From Calditrichia bacterium (GTDB lineage: Bacteria > Calditrichota > Calditrichia > JAJRVZ01): a stretch of 64,000 nucleotides of DNA. The first letter of the stretch is position 1. Each line of letters opens with the position of its first letter. The notes below the pieces were generated by a model. That model worked only from the letters and a program-made list of their open reading frames with translations. It was not told the origin of the DNA and made no database searches. The DNA lies in the NCBI GenBank assembly GCA_963777955.1, contig CAVZSQ010000013.1, positions 384,001-448,000 of the forward strand, written 5' to 3'. This document shows, one piece after another, positions 13,685 through 59,937 of this stretch. Made by a program: the position numbers and the translations under genes.

Positions 13685-15166
13685 ATGGAAAACAGACCCC
13701 GCATAGATTTTTTAAGTAAAAAATTAATTGAACAAATCATTGAACAGGCCCGTGATGTTTTATGTTCCCTGGGCGTACAGATTTTCAACCCGGATTTAGT
13801 TTCCCTGCTGGCCGATCATGGTGCCAGGATACTTAAAGAAGACACACGGGTATATTTCAGCCAGCAGATGATTGACCTGGCGTTGTCCCGGGCTCCCCGC
13901 TCATTTCAATTATTCAATGTACAGGGTATTCAGACCCATGATTTCCGCGGGGATCAGGTATATTTCACTCCGGGTTCTTCAGCTCTGGAAATCCTGGATA
14001 TAAATTCAAAAAAATCCAGAAGGGCCGGTACTGTCGATTATATACGCTATGCAAAGATTGTTCAGCAATTATCCCTGATCCATTCACAAAGTACCGCGTT
14101 CGTCCCGGCAGATGTGCCTGAAAGAATATCCGACAGTTACCGGCTGTTTTTAAGTTTATTATTCTGCGAAAAACCGGTTGTGACCGGTACTTTTTCCGTC
14201 GATTCTTTTGAGGTAATGAAAAATTTTCAGGTTGCCGTCCGCGGCGATGAAGCTGCCTTGCGTCAGAAACCACTGACAATATTTTCCTGCTGTCCGACTT
14301 CACCTCTGAAATGGAGCCATACTACTTCGGAAAATATCAGGCAATGCGGTCAATTCGGCATACCTGTTGAATTTATCGCTATGCCGCTGGCAGGATTTGT
14401 TGCTCCGGTTACTCTGGTCGGTACCCTGATTCAGCACACTGCTGAAACATTAAGCGGCATCATTATCAGTCAGATGTGTTCCCCCGGAACTCCGTTTCTC
14501 TACGGCGGCTCTCCGGCAATTTTCGATTTTCGTCATGAGACAGCACCTATGGGTGCCATAGAAACCATGATGATGGATTGTGCTTATAGTGAAATCGGCA
14601 AATATCTGGGATTCCCTACTCAGGCTTACATCGGCCTGAGTGATGCTAAATTGGTCGACAGCCAGGCCGGATTAGAAAGCGGTATCGGGGCGACCCTGGC
14701 AGCATTGGCCGGTATCAATAATATCTGCGGACCAGGTATGATGGATTTCGAAAACTGTTTCAGCCTGGAAAAGTTGATCATCGATCATGAAATATGCCGG
14801 ATGATCTATCGTCTGCTGGAGGGGATTCAACCCCGGGACGATTTTCCTGCTCTGCCCCGTTTCCAGGAATTAATCGCCGAGAAAACGCTGCTGCTCTCGG
14901 AACATACGGTATTACATCTGCGGACTGAACACAGCATACCCGGCGCAGTGATCAACCGCCAGAAGCGTTCCCGCTGGGAATCGGAAGGATCGCGATCGCC
15001 GGAGCAGGAAGCACACCAGCAGGTTTATAAATTACTGGCTGACTACCAACCGTCCCGGCTGCCCGCAGAAATTAAACAGAGTTTACTGACTTTAATGAAA
15101 AATGAGGCAAAAAAATATGGTCAGGATACATTGCCGGAAGAAAAATATCTGCGATCCCAGATATGA
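13685..15166 (+). CDS. Trimethylamine methyltransferase (MttB) superfamily protein, non-pyrrolysine type
   Basis: TSPLKW, APVTLVGTLIQHTAETLSG, PGTPFLYGG, MGAIET, LSDAKLVDSQAGLE, GMMDFENCFSLEKLIIDHEI; no in-frame amber codon. Confidence 0.9.
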   Translation: MENRPRIDFLSKKLIEQIIEQARDVLCSLGVQIFNPDLVSLLADHGARILKEDTRVYFSQQMIDLALSRAPRSFQLFNVQGIQTHDFRGDQVYFTPGSSALEILDINSKKSRRAGTVDYIRYAKIVQQLSLIHSQSTAFVPADVPERISDSYRLFLSLLFCEKPVVTGTFSVDSFEVMKNFQVAVRGDEAALRQKPLTIFSCCPTSPLKWSHTTSENIRQCGQFGIPVEFIAMPLAGFVAPVTLVGTLIQHTAETLSGIIISQMCSPGTPFLYGGSPAIFDFRHETAPMGAIETMMMDCAYSEIGKYLGFPTQAYIGLSDAKLVDSQAGLESGIGATLAALAGINNICGPGMMDFENCFSLEKLIIDHEICRMIYRLLEGIQPRDDFPALPRFQELIAEKTLLLSEHTVLHLRTEHSIPGAVINRQKRSRWESEGSRSPEQEAHQQVYKLLADYQPSRLPAEIKQSLLTLMKNEAKKYGQDTLPEEKYLRSQI

Positions 15167-16140
15167 TGAATAACCGTGACCGGTTCAGGAAGACTCTGTT
15201 GTATGGAATTCCTGACCGGATCCTATATTTCGAAAATGAAATTCACCGGAACGTGATAGCACGCTGGCGTCAGCAGGGGCTTGCCTCAACCAGGCAACTC
15301 CGGGAGACATTCCCGGTCGATGTCTATGAAGAAATCGAACCACAGCTGAATCCTTTACCCCCTATTTATCCCTGGTCCGCTGAGCAATCCATTTTAAGCA
15401 AACTGCAGAAGAGCTTAAATATAAACAACCCGCTGCATTTACCGGCAAACTGGTTTAAGTTGAAAAAATTGGGAGCACAGTTGCAGCAGGTTCTGATCCT
15501 GGTCGTACATCAGGGATTTTTTCTTTCCCTTGGTGTGGGTGATTGGCAAAGTTTTGATCTGTTGATCGGGCAGTTGCGTGAGAACAGGCCATTGATACGG
15601 CGCTGGATGGAAATCTACGGAGAATTTGCTGCGCAGCTGGCTGACAAAATTTTAAACAGAGTAAAAGTCGATGCCGCCTTATTCAATGAACCAATCGGGG
15701 GATTAACTGGTTCGTTGATTTCACCCGCCATGTATCGTGAATTGGTATTGCCGGGTTATCAACCCATTTTGGATGTTCTGGCCAGATACCGCATACCGTT
15801 AATAATTTTCAGAACCTATGCCAATGCCCGTTTACTGCTGCCGGAGGTGCTCAAAGCAGGTATGAATTGTCTGTGGGCCTATGAGTGTAATGATCAGCAA
15901 ATGAATTATGTGGAACTGCGCCGGGAATTTGGGCGCGATCTAAGCCTGATCGGCGGGATCGATCTGGATGCGCTGCGCCGGAACAAGACGGCTATTTACA
16001 ACGAAATTGAAGAAAAAGTCCCGGCATTACTCGCGGCCGAGGGGTATCTTCCGGCCGCAGACGGCCGGATCCGTGAGGATGTATCATTTGAAAATTATGT
16101 TTTTTACCGGGAATTGCTGAAGAAATATATTAAGATTTGA
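15163..16140 (+). CDS. Uroporphyrinogen decarboxylase-superfamily (MtaA/CmuA-like) protein
   Basis: NNRDRF start, LISPAMYRELVLPGY, LRREFGRDLSLIGGID, GYLPAADGRIREDVSFENY; ATGA overlap with mttB-like gene. Confidence 0.75.
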   Translation: MMNNRDRFRKTLLYGIPDRILYFENEIHRNVIARWRQQGLASTRQLRETFPVDVYEEIEPQLNPLPPIYPWSAEQSILSKLQKSLNINNPLHLPANWFKLKKLGAQLQQVLILVVHQGFFLSLGVGDWQSFDLLIGQLRENRPLIRRWMEIYGEFAAQLADKILNRVKVDAALFNEPIGGLTGSLISPAMYRELVLPGYQPILDVLARYRIPLIIFRTYANARLLLPEVLKAGMNCLWAYECNDQQMNYVELRREFGRDLSLIGGIDLDALRRNKTAIYNEIEEKVPALLAAEGYLPAADGRIREDVSFENYVFYRELLKKYIKI

Positions 16141-16146
16141 AAAGAG

Positions 16147-16662
16147 GTGAATATGGAAGCGTATGAAGCTATCATGACCAGAAGGAGTATACGCAAGTAC
16201 ACCAATCAACAGGTCAACGATGAATTAATTCATAAAATTTTACTGGCTGGTATGCTGGCGCCATCAGCCCACGACCACCGTCCCTGGCAATTCATTGTTA
16301 TTACCGCCAGAGAAAAATTACTGGCCATCCCGCGTTTTCATCCTTACGCCGAAATGCTGAAACAGGCGCCCCTGGCTATTGTGATCTGTGGTGATAAAAA
16401 ATTTGAGAAAAGTCTGGACTATATCCTGCTGGACTGTGCGGCTGCGACCGAGAATATGCTGGTAGCAGCTCATGCCCTTGGACTGGGGTCAGTGTGGTTG
16501 GCTGTATATCCACGCCGGGAACGGATCAGGGGGATTACCGACCTTTTACAATTACCCGATTCGATCGTACCGGTCGCCATGATCGCACTGGGCTATCCTG
16601 CCGAACAAAAGACTAGGTCTGATCGCTTCGATCCTGAGCGCCTTCATTTCAACCAATGGTGA
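16147..16662 (+). CDS. Nitroreductase-family flavoprotein
   Basis: IMTRRSIRKY, APSAHDHRPWQFIV, ENMLVAAHALGLGSVW, IALGYP. Confidence 0.92.
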   Translation: MNMEAYEAIMTRRSIRKYTNQQVNDELIHKILLAGMLAPSAHDHRPWQFIVITAREKLLAIPRFHPYAEMLKQAPLAIVICGDKKFEKSLDYILLDCAAATENMLVAAHALGLGSVWLAVYPRRERIRGITDLLQLPDSIVPVAMIALGYPAEQKTRSDRFDPERLHFNQW

Positions 16663-16730: not shown

Positions 16731-16843
16731 CTTACACTTATTTCTATCTTGTTTTCTCAATTTCAGAATATACTGCAAGGTTTTTAAGATGTACATATTT
16801 TGATCTATTTCACGTATTTAACCCAAAACAAGGAGAATCAAAC

Positions 16844-17416
16844 ATGAGGAATTTCCTAATCTTAAGTTTTACTATTATTCTGGCTGTGTTGTTGGTCGGT
16901 TGCGCCAAATACCCGCAAGAAGCGATCGACGCTGCCCAGGCTGCTCTGAATGCCGCCAAGCAAGCTGAAGCAGATCGCTATGTGCCGGATTTATTCAATG
17001 CGGCGCAAAAAACATTGAATGATGCTTTAGCCTTAGCTGATAAGGAAAAAGAAGCAACGTTCAGCAATTACGATGAAGCCCTGAAACTGGTGGCTTCGGC
17101 GACTGAAGCAGCAAACAATGCAGCGAATGCAGTAGCCGCTAAGAAAGAAGAAGTAAAGGCAGCAGCCGAAGCTTTACTGGCTCAAATCCCCGACGCAGTG
17201 AAGAATGCCAAAAAAGCATGGACGAAGGCTCCCCGCGGCAAGGGTACCCGTGAAGCATTGGCAGCGATAAAGGCAGATATCGAAGGACAGGAAAAAGCGG
17301 TCGAAGAAGTTAATGCCGCTCTGACCAGTGGAGACGTTCTTACCGCCCAGCAAAAAGCTCAGGCGATCCTCGATAAATTAGCATCATTAGTGGCAGAATT
17401 ACAACCTAAGAAATAA
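16844..17416 (+). CDS. Alanine-rich helical lipoprotein (DUF4398-like), ends in Lys-Lys
   Basis: Lipobox LVGC; AQAALNAAKQAEADRYVP pattern; strong SD AAGGAG; C-terminus ELQPKK. Confidence 0.8.
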   Translation: MRNFLILSFTIILAVLLVGCAKYPQEAIDAAQAALNAAKQAEADRYVPDLFNAAQKTLNDALALADKEKEATFSNYDEALKLVASATEAANNAANAVAAKKEEVKAAAEALLAQIPDAVKNAKKAWTKAPRGKGTREALAAIKADIEGQEKAVEEVNAALTSGDVLTAQQKAQAILDKLASLVAELQPKK

Positions 17417-17431
17417 AAGTCGTAGACTTAC

Positions 17432-17473
17432 CTTTCCGGTGATCAGTATAGCTGATCACCGGAAAGATTTTTT
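17432..17473 (+). terminator. Rho-independent terminator after the lipoprotein gene
   Basis: ctttccggtgatcag-tatag-ctgatcaccggaaag 15-bp stem followed by a T-run. Confidence 0.85.
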
Positions 17474-17526
17474 ATCCTGCTGGAATTATGTTAATCTTAC
17501 GGTGAATTCATACATTCATATTATTA

Positions 17527-18183
17527 ATGCGCCCGTTTAACCGCTTCATACAATTCATATTGCTGCTTTCAATAACCGGTTTTAGCCCATATTCTTCCGA
17601 AATTAAATCCGACCATGCTGCCGGAGCGATTTCTGATACTGTCGGGCAGAAAAGAGCTGATCTGCTTGGCTCACAAATTGAGCAATTACGGGCACGAATC
17701 GGTCAACTCAAACAGGAATATGAAAAATTTCTGCCTAAAAAAGCATATTTGATTATCAGTACATCGGATAATCAGGTTGTAATAATGGACAAAGATGAAG
17801 TATTGCGCCGCGGACGATGTTCTACAGGCAGTTATGTCCTGCTCAAAGCACCGGAATCTGACGGCCGGCAATGGTTTTTCAGAACTCCGCGTGGCCAGTT
17901 TCAAATTCACATGAAATTGAAAGATCCGTATTGGTACAAACCTGACTGGGCCTATATAGAAGAAGGCGTTCCCATTCCATCTATCTATTCCCGGGCGCGC
18001 TGGCAAGAGGGAGTCTTGGGAAAATATGCACTCAGTTTTGGCCCTGCCTTTATGATTCATGGAACAATCTACAAACGCTTTCTGGGATTACCGGCCACAC
18101 ACGGTTGCGTACGTTTAGATGACGATGATATCCAATTTGTTTTTAAAAAACTTACCCATGGTTCTAAAGTTTATATATACTAG
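17527..18183 (+). CDS. L,D-transpeptidase (YkuD family), exported
   Basis: CSTG, TPRGQF, PYWYKPDW, LGKYAL and catalytic motif IHGT...ATHGCVRL; N-terminal signal peptide and short coiled coil. Confidence 0.92.
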   Translation: MRPFNRFIQFILLLSITGFSPYSSEIKSDHAAGAISDTVGQKRADLLGSQIEQLRARIGQLKQEYEKFLPKKAYLIISTSDNQVVIMDKDEVLRRGRCSTGSYVLLKAPESDGRQWFFRTPRGQFQIHMKLKDPYWYKPDWAYIEEGVPIPSIYSRARWQEGVLGKYALSFGPAFMIHGTIYKRFLGLPATHGCVRLDDDDIQFVFKKLTHGSKVYIY

Positions 18184-18967
18184 GCAGGCGTTCTTGTTTA
18201 CAGAACCCCGGTGTGCTGAAAGATCCGTATCTTCCCGATTATTTGACATCGTTAGAAAAAAAATAAGCTCTGGTCGAAAACTCCCGCCTGTTTTTTTATT
18301 ACTTATATTTTTTCTAAGTTTTTGTCAATCGGAACGGCAGGACCGAAATTCAAATGATACGAGTTTACCGGTAATTGCTGTATCCCAGGTTCCTGAACAC
18401 ATCGATTCGTTGCAGCAGACCTGTATCGAGCTGGAAATTGAAGAATTATTCTGGCGAAACCGCGTGAGCATGTCCCGCGATCCTTCTATTGATCTCGCTA
18501 TTGATTTAATAGACAGTACCGTTTGTCTGGATATCAAAGGAGTTACACTGCGCAAGACCAGGATAAGTAAATATCAGATCAGTCGTTCAATGGGATACCT
18601 GAAATGGTATTTGGCTTACAAGAGCTGGTTAGCCGGACCTTTCAATTTAAAACAGGATTCTGTATCCTCCATACCCAAAGAACCCGTTTTCATCAAGGAT
18701 CTGGCCACATATCCACTGGAATATTTTGATGATTGGACCTATTTCACCCGCCTGGAGAAGGAAGGCCCGGTGCATTATTTACTGGAATATGACCGCGGCT
18801 TGCTGGTTCAGGTTGACCAGGACAGCGACACCGTTCAGGTCAATGATCTGCCGGAACATTGGTGCAGAATATCGATTCCCGCAACTGATGCCAAAGCCAT
18901 TTACCGTGCTCTGGCTTTACCTTCGGAAATGACTGGTATTGAAGCAACTAACCACCTCCGAGGTTAG
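18119..18967 (+). CDS. Exported protein with degenerate L,D-transpeptidase-like domain (start uncertain)
   Basis: Hydrophobic segment ending FLSFC, coiled coil, LAIDLIDSTVCLDIKGVTLR YkuD-like start, and EHWCRISIPATDAKAIYRAL aligning by eye with THGCVRLDDDDIQFVFKKL. Confidence 0.5.
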   Translation: MTMISNLFLKNLPMVLKFIYTRQAFLFTEPRCAERSVSSRLFDIVRKKISSGRKLPPVFLLLIFFLSFCQSERQDRNSNDTSLPVIAVSQVPEHIDSLQQTCIELEIEELFWRNRVSMSRDPSIDLAIDLIDSTVCLDIKGVTLRKTRISKYQISRSMGYLKWYLAYKSWLAGPFNLKQDSVSSIPKEPVFIKDLATYPLEYFDDWTYFTRLEKEGPVHYLLEYDRGLLVQVDQDSDTVQVNDLPEHWCRISIPATDAKAIYRALALPSEMTGIEATNHLRG

Positions 18968-20303: not shown

Positions 20304-21211
20304 ATGATAAATCGTCGTGAATTCATTAAACGGAGTAGTAAAGCCGCACTGGCCCTGTCCGCCTTATCTGCGTCAAAAGCAGTTTCTGTATTCGCGCAGC
20401 AAACTGTTCCCGCAGCTGTGTGGGTAGAAAATGGCGAACCGGCAGATTTGTTAAAAGCAGCTTTAAAGGAATACGGCGGAATGAACCATTTCATATCACG
20501 GGTGACATTGTTGTGGTCAAACCGAATATTGGCTGGGACCGTGCTCCGCAGTACGCTGCTAATTCGAATCCCGATCTGGTGGCTGAGATTATCAAAGCCT
20601 GTTATTCGGCCGGCGCCAAAACAGTAAAAGTATTCGACAATACCTGTAACAATCCGCGGCGTTGTTATAAAAATTCGCAGATAGAAGAAAAGGCCACGGC
20701 AGCGGATGCAGAAGTATCCCAGATCCGGAATGAAAAATTTGTTAATACGACTATTAAAAACGGTAAAATACTCAAAGAATGGTCTTTATATAAGGACTAT
20801 CTGGAAGCGGATAAAGTTATTAATGTCCCCATTGCCAAACATCATTCCATGAGCAGGGTAACTCTGGGTTTGAAGAACCTGATGGGGGTAATGGGCGATA
20901 ACCGCGGTTCACTGCATTCAGACTTTGACATTAAATTAAATGATATCGATAGCAATATTCTGCCCACCCTGACTATTATGGATGCCTATCGTATCTTAAC
21001 GGCCAATGGCCCGGTGGGGGGCAACCTGGCTCATGTAAAATTAACCAAAACTCTGATCATGAGCCCCTGTGTGGTGACCGCCGATTATCTGGCACTTGAT
21101 CTTTTTGGTCTCACTTTAACAGAAGTAGGCCACGTTAAAGAAGCAGTCAATCGCGGAATGAATAAATACGATCTGAAAAAATTGAATGTGAAGAAGATTT
21201 CATTAGCCTGA
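20304..21211 (+). CDS. Tat-exported DUF362 protein (one frameshift near 20500)
   Basis: NRREFIK Tat motif; adding one G to the run at 20500-20502 gives FISRGDIVVVKPNIGWDR; INVPIAKHH, TLGLKNLMG. Confidence 0.85.
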
Positions 21212-21260
21212 GTGGAAATCCTGATAGGAAGGGACAAAGGGACAAAGATAAAAAATACCG

Positions 21261-21340
21261 ACCCACCCCTCTTTCCCCTCGCCTATCAGATCCGACAGCA
21301 CTGCCGGACTAGATAGGGAGGGGATGACAAGGGGTGGGTT
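21261..21340. repeat. Long hairpin repeat, family C (ACCCACCCCT...CCCCTC...GGGAGGGGA...GGGG.GGGT)
   Basis: Same arms at 33070-33135 and 36790-36855; this copy carries an extra inner hairpin tccgacag-ca-ctgccgga. Confidence 0.8.
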
Positions 21341-21392
21341 AGGATAAGCCCGGCACCGATGATATTTATAAATACTAATTTTATTTAACTCA

Positions 21393-22994
21393 ATGTCAAA
21401 AACCAGAAAAATATTTCAAATCCTCTTCCTGCTCTTTTTCATTTTCTTATTCATGAAAGCACGGTATCCTTACAACGACGCACTTACCTCGGATATTTTT
21501 CTGCGTTTCAGTCCGCTGATACCGTTATTTGATTTTATTCAGCATTTCAGGATATCCTGGCTATTCTGGCCGGCGTTGATCATCCTGCTGGCCACACCAT
21601 TTTTGGGCCGATTCTTTTGCGGCTGGATCTGTCCGTTGGGTACAGCCATCGATGTCTCCAGTAAAATTGTAAAATCCCCTTCCAATAAAATCTCCGCCAA
21701 ATTCGAAAACTGGCGCTATGTGAAATTTGCGCTCCTGGTGGGCTTGATTATCCTGGCAATTTTTTCGGTCAATCTGTGGGGTTATCTTGATCCGCTTTCA
21801 ATCTTTAACCGGGCTTTGACCGCCATTCTTTATCCACTTTCGACCCTGTTCGTTGAGAAATCTTTACTGGCGTTAGCCAGTATATCATTTTTAGCTGATC
21901 CTGTTTATTACATATATGATCATTTTAAAAATTTGATTATGCCCGAAGATCAGATTTTCCTGCAACAGTTATTCTGGATATCCATCTTTTTTATTATCAT
22001 TCTTGGTCTGGAAAAATTATCGCGGCGATTCTGGTGCCGCAATTTATGTCCCGCCGGTGCCTGGCTGGGATTCCTGTCCCAGTTCCGTCTTTACGAACGC
22101 ATTGTCGGAGATCAGTGCCCGGTATGCAACAAGTGCCAGGTTGAATGTAAGATGAATGCCATACCGGCCGGGAATGTTAAACTGACTAATAAAGTAGAAT
22201 GTATAGAGTGCTTCAACTGCGGAGCCGTCTGTCCGCCCAAAGCCAAATCGATCACTTACCGCTGGCGCTGGAAACCGTATCATTCAGAGGTTGATTATAA
22301 CCGCCGCCAGTTTATCACCACCTCTGCTACCAGTGTGGCAGTGCTCGGTTTATTATCTCTCGGTTTTAAAAATCGCCAGGAGCGCAAAGGGATTATACGT
22401 CCACCTGGTTCATTACCTGAAGATGAATTCCTGGATCGCTGTATCCGCTGTCTGGAATGTGTGCGTATCTGTTCGACCAACGGCCGCTGTCTGCAGCCGG
22501 ATCATATTCATAATACGGTTCTGGAACTGTGGGCTCCCACAGCCATCATGCGCGAGGGGTATTGCGAGTATAACTGCAATTTGTGCGGACTGGTATGTCC
22601 TACTGAAGCCATACTCCCGCTCGGGCTGGAACAGAAAAAAGTTACCCCCATGGGTCTGGCCTATTTTGATAAAAATCTTTGTATCCCTTTTGCCCAGAAT
22701 AAAGATTGTATTGTCTGTGAAGAACATTGTCCCACGCCGGAAAAAGCCATCAAGTTTGAAATTAAGGACGCGATCTTACCCGATGGTACCTCACGAAAGG
22801 TTAAGTATCCATATGTAGTGCGGGAGTTATGCATCGGCTGCGGGATATGTGAAACCAAGTGTCCTTTGCCCACTGCATCTGCTATAATTGTTACCAATGA
22901 GAATGAAAAACGGCTGACGAAGGCGAATGCAGCTGTTTCAAGAACATATAAATTAGTGAAAAATGTTTTTTATTTTAATCCTTACGAATTTTAA
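21393..22994 (+). CDS. Membrane polyferredoxin (NapH/MauN-like membrane domain fused to NapG/MauM-like 4Fe-4S domain)
   Basis: GRFFCGWICPLG and RFWCRNLCPAG motifs; multiple CxxCxxCxxxCP; IRPPGS; internal RRQF twin-arginine motif. Confidence 0.88.
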   Translation: MSKTRKIFQILFLLFFIFLFMKARYPYNDALTSDIFLRFSPLIPLFDFIQHFRISWLFWPALIILLATPFLGRFFCGWICPLGTAIDVSSKIVKSPSNKISAKFENWRYVKFALLVGLIILAIFSVNLWGYLDPLSIFNRALTAILYPLSTLFVEKSLLALASISFLADPVYYIYDHFKNLIMPEDQIFLQQLFWISIFFIIILGLEKLSRRFWCRNLCPAGAWLGFLSQFRLYERIVGDQCPVCNKCQVECKMNAIPAGNVKLTNKVECIECFNCGAVCPPKAKSITYRWRWKPYHSEVDYNRRQFITTSATSVAVLGLLSLGFKNRQERKGIIRPPGSLPEDEFLDRCIRCLECVRICSTNGRCLQPDHIHNTVLELWAPTAIMREGYCEYNCNLCGLVCPTEAILPLGLEQKKVTPMGLAYFDKNLCIPFAQNKDCIVCEEHCPTPEKAIKFEIKDAILPDGTSRKVKYPYVVRELCIGCGICETKCPLPTASAIIVTNENEKRLTKANAAVSRTYKLVKNVFYFNPYEF

Positions 22995-23235: not shown

Positions 23236-25914
23236 ATGATTAAAGTTGATCAATTTGCAATTGTAAGTGGCTGTTTATTAGTAGCCACATCTTCATCGCA
23301 GGCCCAGGAAAGTATTACGAGCAGCAACTTAGAAGGTTGGGTCATAGACTCGACTGGAATATCAATAGCTGCAGCAAACGTAGTCGTCAATTCATCCAGT
23401 TTACAAGGAACTCGTGGCACCACCAGCGACAATAACGGTTTATTTCGTATACTATATTTACCCCCCGGTGATTACACAATCAGAATTTCTCATGTATCTT
23501 TCAGACCTCAGGTATTTGTAAATGTTCGAATTCTATTGGGGAGAACGACCGGACTTGGTGACATCCGATTGACAGAGATGACTTATGATATGAAAGAAAT
23601 TGTTATTCAGGCTGAGCAGCCGTTTATTGATTCAACATCTGTAACAACCGGCGCTAATCTTTTACGCAGAGATTTTGAACTACTACCTATAGAACGTAAT
23701 TATCTAAGTGCAGTTTCCATTCTGCCGCATACTAACCAGAGTTATTTCGGCGACGAGGTCAATACGGGAGGCGCTTCAGGGGCTGAAAACAGATACTTTC
23801 TTGATGGTAATGACGTTACCGATCCCTTCCGTGGGATCGCGGTACCAACTTACCCTACAATTTTGTCCAGGAAATCCAGGTAAAAAGTTTTGGCTATGAA
23901 CCCGAGTACCGGAGCGCACTTGGAGGCATTATAAATGCCATCACCTACTCGGGGAGCAATAAGTTTTCTGGCCAGATCTTTGGATTCTTTACTAATAATA
24001 ATTTCTCTTCGGAACCACGTTTAGCCGAAACAGAACCTCCAAAAGGTTCCTATTCTCAATATGATTTTGGGCTTTTATTGGGGGGACCTATTATCAGGGA
24101 CAGACTCTGGTTCTCTGCTGCCTATAGCCCCTTTTTCCGCAATGAAGATATAAAACTACCTGGACTTGGGATACTATCCGGACAACATTGTTGCACACCC
24201 TTTGTGCAGGAAAACTCAATTGGAAAGCCTCGGAGTCTGTAAGACTTAAGACTAACTGTACTTGGAGATCCAACCCGTGATAATGCAGTAGGGAAGAAGT
24301 TTTGGTACCACCCAACTATTCTAAATTCAGAAAACCCCGACTTTTTTTCTATCAAAAAATATTTCAGGCGGATATGGATCAATTATCGATGGGCAGTACT
24401 TTCTATCAACGTAAAACGCATTTTCAGGGCACCGTTTCATGGAAAACTTTTGATCACAAATATTTACCGCGTACTGAAAAAGGTGCTAAAGACCCGACTT
24501 TCTTGGATACCGAAACTGCTACAGTATCAGGTGGGACTGGAGAAAGGGTGGATATTCGTAGTACAGTAATTGCCGTTTCCATGTCTTTATCACTGAACCT
24601 AAATCAACAGCTGTTAAAAGCAGGTATAGAGTATAAGGATATAGGACTGGAAAGTAATAATATCTTGGAACAACTTTGGCGATATAACGACTCTAGTTTG
24701 ACAATCTATCAAGGTAATCCGAGTGGAACCATTCGAAACCGTATTCCGTCTTTATATGTGCAGGATAGTTGGTCTTCAAGAATCGGATTACGATAACAGG
24801 TGGTATGCGATGGGACGGACTCTTTGTAATCGGGGGGGATGGAAAAGTAGCTCAACGAATTTTCAAACAATTCCAGCCACGGTTAGGTGGATCATTCTTG
24901 TTTAACAGGAAAAAGACTATGAAGATCTATGTAACTGTTGGACGGTATGCTGAAGATTTGTTAACATTCGGCTCGACATATTATCATATTTGTGGAACAC
25001 AAATTATCAAATATTATGATCATGACCCACGTATAGACCCGACAATTAATAATATGTTTTTACTCGGCGGTAAAATTGCGCCTGAAGTGAAAGGTCTACG
25101 AGGACAATACTATGATGAACTCGTTATCGGATATGAACAACTGATAATCTCATCGTTGAAACTCACAGTTCGAGGTATATACCGAAGACTAAAAGAGATA
25201 TTAGAGGACGGGGAAGGGATCGCAGGTTCTGGTATATTCTATTTTGGCAATCCGGGGCACTATCCATTAGATGAATTCCCAAAACCTGAACGTGTTTATA
25301 CTGCACTTGATTTAACTATCGAGAGATCTTTCGATAGGTCATCGAAAATATTTATTTCATACATATTATCCCGCAACTATGGAAATTATGCAGGTATGTA
25401 CTGGCAGGACCATGGTGTGGCCATGCCATCCGTATCTGGGCAATTCGACTATCTGGACATTATGAAAAATTCATCAGGATTGCTACCCAATGATCGGACA
25501 CACGTACTGAAATTCAACGGGTCATTTAATTTAACTTTAAGACTCTCCTGCGGAGTATTATTTATCTGGCAATCAGGCACGCCCCTTAGTGAAATCGGTG
25601 GATCCGCCCACGGGCAGGATTGGCCAATTTTTCTTAAACCGCGTGGTTCTACTGGCAGGCTTCCATCAATATGGGATTTGAATCTACGTTTTGCATACGA
25701 TATAACATTTTTGTCAGATTGGAGAGCAAGACCGCGATTGATTCTGGATGTTTTCCATGTAGGTAGTCAATTGACGGTGGTCCAGCAGGATCAACGACAT
25801 TACTTTAATCAAGATGATCAGGGTGATCAGATCAATCCCAATCCCGCTTATGGTTTACCTCAAAAATTTCAACCACCAATGTCCGTAAGATTAGGGATGG
25901 AAGTGAATTTCTGA
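23236..25914 (+). CDS. TonB-dependent receptor, Oar-like with N-terminal carboxypeptidase-regulatory domain; split by several frameshifts
   Basis: Fragments in changing frames: LPPGDYTI, ENRYFLDGNDVTDP, PYNFVQEIQVKSFGYEPEY...GGIINAITYSGSN (plug), YVQDSW, GMRWD, LPNDRTH, C-terminal VRLGMEVNF. Confidence 0.8.
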
Positions 25915-58482: not shown

Positions 58483-59937
58483 ATGAAAACAAAAAATCTG
58501 AAAGAAATACTGGACGGAATTGAATTTACGGAAAAGACCAGGATCAGGGACTGTCCGATTAATCAGATTGTCTATGATTCCCGTAAAGTAAATCCACAAA
58601 GTCTATTTATTGCCATTAAAGGATTTAAGTCCGATGGACACAATTTTTTAAAACAAATCGCCGCTCAGGGTGTGGCCGCGGCAATTGTTGAACATAAAGA
58701 TCCCCAGGTACAGATCGATCAATATCCGGTTAAAGATACCCGCCTGGAAATGGCCCGCATTGCTGCTAACTTTTTTAATCCGGAGTTGGCAAAAGTCAAA
58801 CTGGTAGGTATCACCGGTACCAACGGTAAAACAACCACCTCTTACCTGGTCCGTTCGATCATGGAAAATGCCGGTCTTAAAAGCGGCTTGATCGGAACCA
58901 TCAGTTACCAGGTATCCGAACAAGCCATTAAAGCCTGGAACACCACACCGGAATCAGTGGATCTGTGCAAAATGATCTACGAAATGTACGCAAAAAATCA
59001 GCGCGGCTGTGTACTGGAAGTCTCATCCCATGCCCTGGCCCTTAAACGGGTGGAATACCTGAAATTTGCCGTTGGCGTTTTTACCAATCTTACCCAGGAT
59101 CATCTTGATTTTCATGTTGACATGGAAGACTATTATACTGCCAAGAAACATCTCTTCACCCTGCTGGATCCAAAAGGCCAGGCCGTGATCAACAGCGATG
59201 ATCCTTACGGTAAACGGCTTTGTCAGGAGTTACCGCCGGATGATCTGCTCGATTTTGGTTTCACAACTGAGGCTAAAGTACATCCCCTGAACTGGGAGAA
59301 TACAATCTCCGGCCTTCATCTCAGCGTGCAGACTCCGGTCGGAGATATTGAAATTAATTCGACTTTAATCGGGAAATTCAACATCGAAAATATACTGGCT
59401 GCAATAGCTGCCGGTCTGGCTCTGAATTATGATCTTAAAACCATCCAGGCCGGCATAGAAAAAATTAAAGCCGTACCGGGCCGGTTGGAAATTATCAGAA
59501 CTCCCCAGGCTAAATCGATTGTGGTTGATTATGCCCATACCCCCGATGCCCTGGAGAAAGCCTTGCTGGTATTGAGTCAATTGACCCGTAACGAATTGTG
59601 GGTCGTTTTCGGGTGCGGCGGAAACAGGGATAAAACCAAAAGACCGATTATGGGATCTATTGCAGAGAAAATTGCCGACCGGGTGGTGGTTACCTCGGAC
59701 AATCCCAGGTTTGAATCACCTCAGGATATTGTCAATGAAATCCTGATCGGTTTTTCAACGCTGCAAAATGTATATGTAGAAATAAACCGCCGGGCTGCAA
59801 TCGCCTACGCCCTGGAAAATTCCAAACCCGGTGATACCATTTTGATAGCCGGCAAGGGTCACGAAGATTATCAGGAAATCCAGGGAGTGAAATATCCATT
59901 TGATGACCGGAACATTATTAAAGAGTTGATCCAATGA
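58483..59937 (+). CDS. murE: UDP-MurNAc-tripeptide synthetase (meso-DAP adding)
   Basis: GITGTNGKTT, EVSSH, DHLDFH, VDYAHTPD, DNPR (DAP specificity), AGKGHE. Confidence 0.96.
   Translation: MKTKNLKEILDGIEFTEKTRIRDCPINQIVYDSRKVNPQSLFIAIKGFKSDGHNFLKQIAAQGVAAAIVEHKDPQVQIDQYPVKDTRLEMARIAANFFNPELAKVKLVGITGTNGKTTTSYLVRSIMENAGLKSGLIGTISYQVSEQAIKAWNTTPESVDLCKMIYEMYAKNQRGCVLEVSSHALALKRVEYLKFAVGVFTNLTQDHLDFHVDMEDYYTAKKHLFTLLDPKGQAVINSDDPYGKRLCQELPPDDLLDFGFTTEAKVHPLNWENTISGLHLSVQTPVGDIEINSTLIGKFNIENILAAIAAGLALNYDLKTIQAGIEKIKAVPGRLEIIRTPQAKSIVVDYAHTPDALEKALLVLSQLTRNELWVVFGCGGNRDKTKRPIMGSIAEKIADRVVVTSDNPRFESPQDIVNEILIGFSTLQNVYVEINRRAAIAYALENSKPGDTILIAGKGHEDYQEIQGVKYPFDDRNIIKELIQ

Follow-up and report, generated by a model that had tools for sequence, protein, structure and literature searches.

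A conserved operon of a helical lipoprotein, a YkuD transpeptidase and a YkuD pseudo-enzyme as a candidate covalent envelope tether unrelated to Lpp

Covalent fixing of a membrane to the cell wall is, to our knowledge, known for only a few cases in diderm bacteria other than those that carry the lipoprotein Lpp. Lpp is restricted to a subclade of the Gammaproteobacteria (10.1101/2021.05.31.446380), and its system in Escherichia coli comprises the helical lipoprotein itself, the YkuD transpeptidases LdtA/B/C (ErfK, YbiS and YcfS), which carry an active-site Arg, and the YkuD hydrolase DpaA (LdtF/YafK), which lacks it (PMC8263019, PMC12274547). Two further cases are described in PMC12274547. LimB of Coxiella burnetii, a lipoprotein other than Lpp, is joined to peptidoglycan by way of an internal lysine (PMC12274547, citing its ref. 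27), and its enzyme is given as unknown in PMC11841132. OutB of Dickeya is a non-Lpp membrane protein that is joined to peptidoglycan by YkuD enzymes, using a C-terminal Lpp box and the enzymes of Lpp (PMC12274547).

We compared with these systems a locus from a Calditrichia bacterium. The window, that is, the whole stretch of DNA analyzed, is 64,000 nucleotides long and holds the three-gene core, A, C and D, of a conserved operon whose fourth gene, B, is absent here. The features are as follows.

16830..16835, + strand: Shine-Dalgarno sequence AAGGAG, 8 nt 5' of the ATG of A, read from the sequence
16844..17416, + strand: A, lipoprotein of 190 aa; Cys20; one 52-residue helix carries two tandem three-helix bundles, of which the first is DUF4398-like
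17228..17242, + strand: A-P-R-G-K loop of A, with the Lys133 codon at 17240-17242; candidate acceptor of the peptidoglycan stem, a putative role
17432..17466, + strand: terminator-like hairpin of 16 pairs with a T tail, immediately 3' of A; kept by relatives
17527..18183, + strand: C, YkuD L,D-transpeptidase; N-terminal export/anchor segment, helical stalk, His178 (18058-18060), His192, Cys194 (18106-18108) and Arg196
18119..18967, + strand: D, membrane-anchored YkuD-fold protein without the catalytic His and Cys, by structure matches and alignment
58483..59937, + strand: murE with a DNPR motif; context, a DAP-type stem peptide being likely

For D an alternative start at the ATG at 18158 is possible, which is the start used in a close relative (L001). 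An earlier note, made from the letters of this DNA, had described most of these elements, and in this it was right. The lipoprotein reading frame runs from a basic-hydrophobic signal to LLVG-C20, has Ala at +2 and ends ...ELQPKK; the strong Shine-Dalgarno site and the terminator belonging to A are both present, and the hairpin of the latter is also conserved in relatives; the exported L,D-transpeptidase has an intact motif (Pfam YkuD, E 5e-20; HGT at 178-180 and HGCVR at 192-196); A, predicted to be all helical, is all helical in its AlphaFold model (mean pLDDT 92); and murE carries DNPR, which we take to be the mark of DAP-type MurE ligases. D, the conserved third member of the operon, lies within the coordinates that the earlier note covered and was left unmentioned there.

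The operon is preceded by an MttB-family methyltransferase, a URO-D-like gene and a nitroreductase (13685-16662) and followed by a DUF362-like/4Fe-4S pair (20304-22994), in which the gene at 20304-21211 lies in two overlapping frames. Similar neighbors flank the three-gene operon in several genomes of the same family. An outer-membrane receptor-like gene at 23236-25914, with a carboxypeptidase-regulatory N-terminus and a barrel-like C-terminus, is seemingly split over several frames. A promoter scan of the stretch gave 10 sites against 9.0 expected, and none is claimed.

Among 45 genome loci found with A, C lies downstream in 42, an intervening B is present in 42 and D in 40. C is missing from three loci: L032 is cut by a contig end, L042 has a 78-residue remnant, and L006 is a real exception. 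In the last, the A copy at 1142-1744 is accompanied by an unrelated downstream gene, and this is the sole clear exception to the linkage among the 45. The carriers belong to Calditrichota, KSB1/Zhuqueibacterota, Bacteroidales, Nitrospinota and Deltaproteobacteria. C also led to 566 metagenome loci; among the best 80 of these, A was present in 39/39 that had at least 2.2 kb upstream, and D in 63/63 that had at least 400 bp downstream. Across 86 genomes of the window's phylum, A occurs in 20 and C in 19, and the genomes are identical except for G047, in which A lies 430 bp from a contig end. These linkage counts include kin and are not independent samples; the linkage nonetheless holds across phyla, in genome and metagenome loci alike, and supports the dedicated lipoprotein-transpeptidase pairing that the earlier note had proposed. 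Chance adjacency of A and C was rejected on the 42/45 genome loci, the 39/39 metagenome loci and the co-occurrence in the phylum. The A-C system is missing from 66 of the 86 genomes and so is not essential.

The nearest named relative of the window is a Calditrichota MAG, 94% identical, and a cluster look-up with 10 representatives named no cultured isolate. In literature searches whose coverage largely left out subscription papers and supplements, we found no description of this operon, nor any paper linking Calditrichota with a peptidoglycan transpeptidase and a lipoprotein, or a YkuD transpeptidase with a pseudoenzyme.

Most relatives carry B and so have a four-gene form of the operon. The genome of the window itself has a second, four-gene copy (G000:C22:164250-167796, minus strand), in which B lies in two ORFs (166616-167026 and 165877-166641); because B is whole in a genome of the same genus (G043, locus L093), this split may reflect either faulty assembly or a recent break. 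No YkuD hit of the genome falls outside these two operons, which have three between them. B consists of a transmembrane anchor, a full copy of the rod of A (hhalign 99.3%) and a YkuD domain, for which the closest relatives of known structure are 7o21 (Bd1075), DpaA (8ikr), Pgp2 and Csd6. An Arg after the catalytic Cys separates transpeptidases from DpaA and carboxypeptidases, which lack it, and the Arg-less motif is shared by amidase (detaching) and carboxypeptidase activities (PMC8263019). In B, Arg two places past the catalytic Cys was found in 0/111 copies bearing the motif, 4/115 being without the motif. By its sequence, B is a DpaA/Csd6-like hydrolase of predicted activity.

A quick tree built from 56 C rows selected among the loci, in which the starred branches force two changes, indicated that the B-less form arose at least twice. 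We found no full B ortholog elsewhere in five B-less genomes (85-95% complete), G045 giving one weak hit to the catalytic part, and the idea that B is supplied from elsewhere in every three-gene genome was rejected on the five genomes searched. The repeated B-less form and the lack of a full B elsewhere in these five suggest that A-C-D is the core of the operon. In both lineages that lost B, the basic tail of A is shortened or neutral, and the APKDT motif and helical insert are degraded in D or gone from it. It is only a lead, drawn from two events, that the tail of A might serve B and Lys133 might serve C and D.

The AlphaFold model of A has five helices (25-40, 48-69, 77-128, 136-162 and 165-186), and helix 77-128 is shared by both three-helix bundles. 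The model suggests a rod about 8 nm long, one end of which would bear the lipid and the opposite end the loop 129-135 and the C-terminus; rod length and loop position are estimates from topology and secondary structure (the 52-residue central helix). The lipobox, LVG-C20, follows a signal peptide, the Cys is present in 148/149 representatives (below 50% identity; 150 were listed and the near-identical P0001 was omitted), and lipidation is predicted. The loop between helices 2 and 3 of A (17048-17074), at the anchor end of the rod, is aromatic and basic, is KF-x-LFRNY-like in relatives and is common to A and B; it could dip into the membrane and hold the rod upright.

The first bundle of A (residues 21-103) superposes on 4fm3 with a Z of 12.3 and an rmsd of 1.9 over 76 aligned residues (25% identity). 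PF14346 (DUF4398) is annotated, in precomputed form, on many homologs of A, and A itself had no match to it over the cut-off in a Pfam scan. Residues 4-69 gave a weak match to LipL71 (E 2.8e-5, far below the cut-off). A thus resembles DUF4398 proteins (PF14346; P. aeruginosa PA2901, 4fm3) and Leptospira LipL71 in its first bundle, and differs from them in having a second bundle with the Lys133 loop and in having no OmpA or LysM wall-binding domain. Structure comparison showed that the whole rod is only loosely like spectrin-like rods. EzrA (Z 11.6, rmsd 10.4) and Borrelia BB0323 (Z 9.7, rmsd 8.1) share the tandem three-helix bundles with scores in the range common for helical bundles, the likeness shown being one of fold. 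A Foldseek search with A gave no match at E 0.001.

A did not match the Pfam LPP family (PF04728), and no Lpp was found in the genome (92% complete) by a search that detected the E. coli control. The single chain of A folds back in its model as two three-helix bundles and is not one helix for a homotrimeric coiled coil, as in Lpp. The fold thus differs, and the lack of an Lpp hit in the genome is in keeping with the earlier note, which had suggested that the lipoprotein may be unrelated to Lpp.

C matches PF03734 (YkuD) over the cut-off and has the motif His...His-Gly-Cys-x-Arg, of which His178, His192, Cys194 and Arg196 are kept in 84/84 copies. Besides His/His/Cys it therefore has the Arg that DpaA lacks, which agrees with the transpeptidase-type active site claimed for it. 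Scores against NF007612 (40 bits, cut-off 583) and NF007563 (34 bits, cut-off 517), which are presumably models of the ErfK/YbiS/YcfS subfamilies that attach Lpp, were low, and the best NCBIfam matches, LdtE among them, are all far below cut-off. At the level of sequence, C does not separate protein-attaching from 3-3 cross-linking enzymes. In one genome (G044) C is the only YkuD hit, suggesting that it may do general cross-linking. A second cysteine, Cys98 (CSTGS; 17818-17820), is kept in 82/84 copies in addition to the catalytic Cys194. The C of the window has a weak N-terminal hydrophobic stretch (17527-17610, mean 1.38), like a cleavable signal, and in 130/133 relatives this stretch is stronger and anchor-like.

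D gave no Pfam hit. Its fold is nevertheless that of YkuD: the 19 best VIA-align rows are all YkuD-family enzymes (Z 8.5 to 5.0; rmsd 3.7 over 101 aligned residues for the best), the Foldseek rows are likewise YkuD, none reaching E 0.001, and hhalign of D with C gave E 1.3e-4 and a probability of 54%. The catalytic His and Cys are absent, and opposite Cys194 most copies have Lys, Arg or Glu. That D is an unrelated ORF was rejected by the structural matches, and that it is an active cysteine enzyme by the missing His and Cys; Cys249 of the window's D is one place off the catalytic column and was found in 1/84. The D proteins of four-gene loci (L002-L045) have two features that the D of the window lacks, an amphipathic insert of about 35 residues and, in the lid region, a conserved K-x-APKDT motif. 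This motif resembles the APKGK loop of A.

Only three columns, Cys20, Pro24 and Lys133, are invariant among 84 operon-verified copies of A. Lys133 is Lys in 148/149 representatives, the one exception (P0193) having Arg there and Lys at 131, and in 355/358 distinct sequences, where the misses are two fragments and one Arg (355/356 of those covering the position), in homolog sets that were ranked by profiles already containing this lysine. A profile search retrieved 464 clusters at E 1e-30. The neighboring position 131 varies between Lys (78) and Arg (48), and Lys133 persists where the adjoining Pro or Gly of the A-P-[RK]-G-K loop changes. From the homologous rod of B precisely this loop is deleted. 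The next-best lysine, Lys101, is kept in 138/149, and other lysine-rich columns take Arg or other residues. A lysine that lies in an exposed loop and does not give way to Arg has the features expected of an amine acceptor, which makes Lys133 a candidate; a docking residue is also possible, and the invariance can equally be that of a binding or helix-capping residue. LimB, joined to peptidoglycan at an internal lysine, provides a precedent (PMC12274547).

A hairpin of -10 kcal/mol or below with a T-rich tail follows A in 100/109 loci, whereas the same criterion, with 130 nt scanned 3' of each stop, was satisfied after B in 8/94, after C in 18/105 and after D in 8/90. A terminator scan of the window gave 6 sites against 4.7 expected, so that the weight of the terminator of A comes from its conservation. 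This conservation suggests an excess of A, such as would suit a substrate and not a subunit in 1:1 ratio, in keeping with the earlier proposal that the intervening terminator would give a substrate excess; A is probably abundant. Public-run expression was not usable: five runs contained 6-8% of the words, and the four that were mapped, over all contigs, had been selected by the stretch itself and cannot rank genes. Codon bias (A at the 78th percentile, C at the 5th, D at the 25th) was not used as a sign of abundance, bias being weak in this genome and the reference set having been picked by motifs, one of them probably wrong.

The gene set, its order and linkage, the folds, the active-site residues and the conservation of Lys133 and of the terminator are what the sequences show; the covalent bond and the membrane involved, like the abundance of A, the place of its loop and the roles of D and B, are our proposal. 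We give an even chance to the reading that abundant A is joined to peptidoglycan at Lys133 by C with the help of D. C would be acylated at Cys194 by a tetrapeptide stem and would then transfer the tripeptide onto the side-chain amine of Lys133. With the Lys133 loop at the end of the rod away from the lipid anchor, a membrane, probably the outer one, would be tied covalently to peptidoglycan. D, as a dead YkuD copy, may bind A and bring it before C, and where B is present this DpaA-like hydrolase, carried on a copy of the rod anchored in the inner membrane, may cut the link again.

A complex model of A, C and D scored 0.48, against 0.16 for the best control, in which D was replaced; the tool grades this as weak support. 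The mark is reached by 116/157 solved complexes and 2/215 mismatches, and at 0.60 or below by 18/157 and by both mismatches. Contact agreement between runs was at least 84% and the pLDDT of the partners at least 83. The model hints that D matters for binding A.

The drop from 0.48 to 0.16 on replacing D, weak as it is, would also be expected if A served, with no covalent bond, to scaffold or activate a peptidoglycan-remodeling complex of C and D (and B) that makes 3-3 cross-links, with the PRGK loop docking D or C. Lipoprotein activators of penicillin-binding proteins offer a comparison. The homology of A with the stalk of B points to a multi-protein assembly, the motifs of D and the basic tail of A erode where B is lost, and C is the sole YkuD hit in G044. 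Nevertheless, the terminator conserved after A only implies that A is made far above its partners, a docking lysine would often accept Arg, which is found here in 1/356, and the type of B, DpaA/carboxypeptidase, is one suited to taking an attached protein off again. We consider a scaffold possible but rather unlikely. Some observations weigh against the tether itself: the Arg at 133 in P0193 and the well-kept Lys101, seven OmpA-domain proteins in the genome, which are non-covalent tethers, a subfamily of C that is not diagnostic and the many genomes of the phylum without the system.

The covalent link could also be real and differ in its details, A being an inner-membrane tether, as is OutB of Dickeya, or Lys101 or another cargo being the acceptor. 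B, C and D all have N-terminal hydrophobic anchors (97/98, 130/133 and 114/115), and the catalytic domain of B follows a rod of the length of A, which would place it level with the loop of A if both sat in the same membrane. The earlier note had also stressed the lack of Asp at +2. This is true of the A of the window, which has Ala, and is not conserved, the +2 residue varying and being Asp in 31/92 homologs, so that A may lie in either membrane. Searches for LolA gave no hit with PF03548 or PF16584 and one sub-threshold hit with PF17131. However, the +2 sorting rule is enterobacterial, and beyond model taxa LolA is poorly detected by such searches. Lys101 is more variable than Lys133 and is placed within a helix, where the two bundles meet, and tethering of the inner membrane to the wall by Lpp is toxic in E. 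coli (PMC13712963). These variants seem to us improbable.

Attachment through the C-terminal lysine in the manner of Lpp, the version put forward in the earlier note, is very improbable: the protein of the window and its nearest relatives do end in PKK, Lys lies within the last 10 residues in 132/149 representatives, four-gene homologs having basic tails, terminal Lys in 53/149 distant representatives exceeds the genome background of 400/2824 long ORFs, and the Lpp box tolerates substitutions (PMC12274547), but terminal Lys is found in only 15/92 close homologs (102 hits minus five truncated or frameshifted and the five weakest), 17/44 copies at genome loci, 6/15 three-gene and 36/100 four-gene loci, Arg is about as common (51/149), and more than 20% of the periplasmic proteins and lipoproteins of E. 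coli end in Lys anyway (PMC12274547). The PKK end is restricted to the four-row clade of the window in the quick tree of C, and most homologs of the three-gene type end ELQ, ELQR, ELE or AGY; many proteins ending ELQ, ELE, RIRF or AGY have C and D intact. Thus, of the two features that homologs had been expected to share, linkage to the transpeptidase is conserved and the terminal lysine is not, an outcome named in advance as refuting, and the terminal KK is not supported as the anchor.

If Lys133 of A is indeed joined to peptidoglycan by C with the help of D, the operon would work like Lpp, LdtA-C and DpaA without being a member of that system. It would share with it a helical lipoprotein, a YkuD transpeptidase with Arg and, in the four-gene form, a YkuD hydrolase without Arg. 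Unlike Lpp, A has no LPP match and no conserved terminal Lys, it is a single-chain pair of three-helix bundles instead of a trimeric coiled coil, and it shares an operon with its enzymes and an inactive YkuD partner, the hydrolase being mounted on a copy of its rod. LimB is like the proposal for A in its mode of attachment and differs in that a dedicated enzyme adjoins A. OutB is like it as a non-Lpp protein and differs in relying on an Lpp box and the Lpp enzymes.

The operon is a complete and testable kit, with a substrate, an enzyme, a putative adaptor, a putative detacher, a named candidate acceptor residue and an expected muropeptide adduct. In its widest form the proposal is a tentative one, possible rather than probable: a widespread, self-contained covalent envelope tether unrelated to Lpp in Calditrichota, KSB1, Bacteroidales, Nitrospinota and deltaproteobacterial lineages, in which a spectrin-like lipoprotein ruler would be joined via an internal loop lysine by a transpeptidase whose substrate recognition depends on a pseudo-transpeptidase, with an optional detacher on a copy of the ruler. 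If true, this would give both a YkuD pseudo-enzyme and a DUF4398-type protein a first role, and it would show how an L,D-transpeptidase picks its protein substrate.
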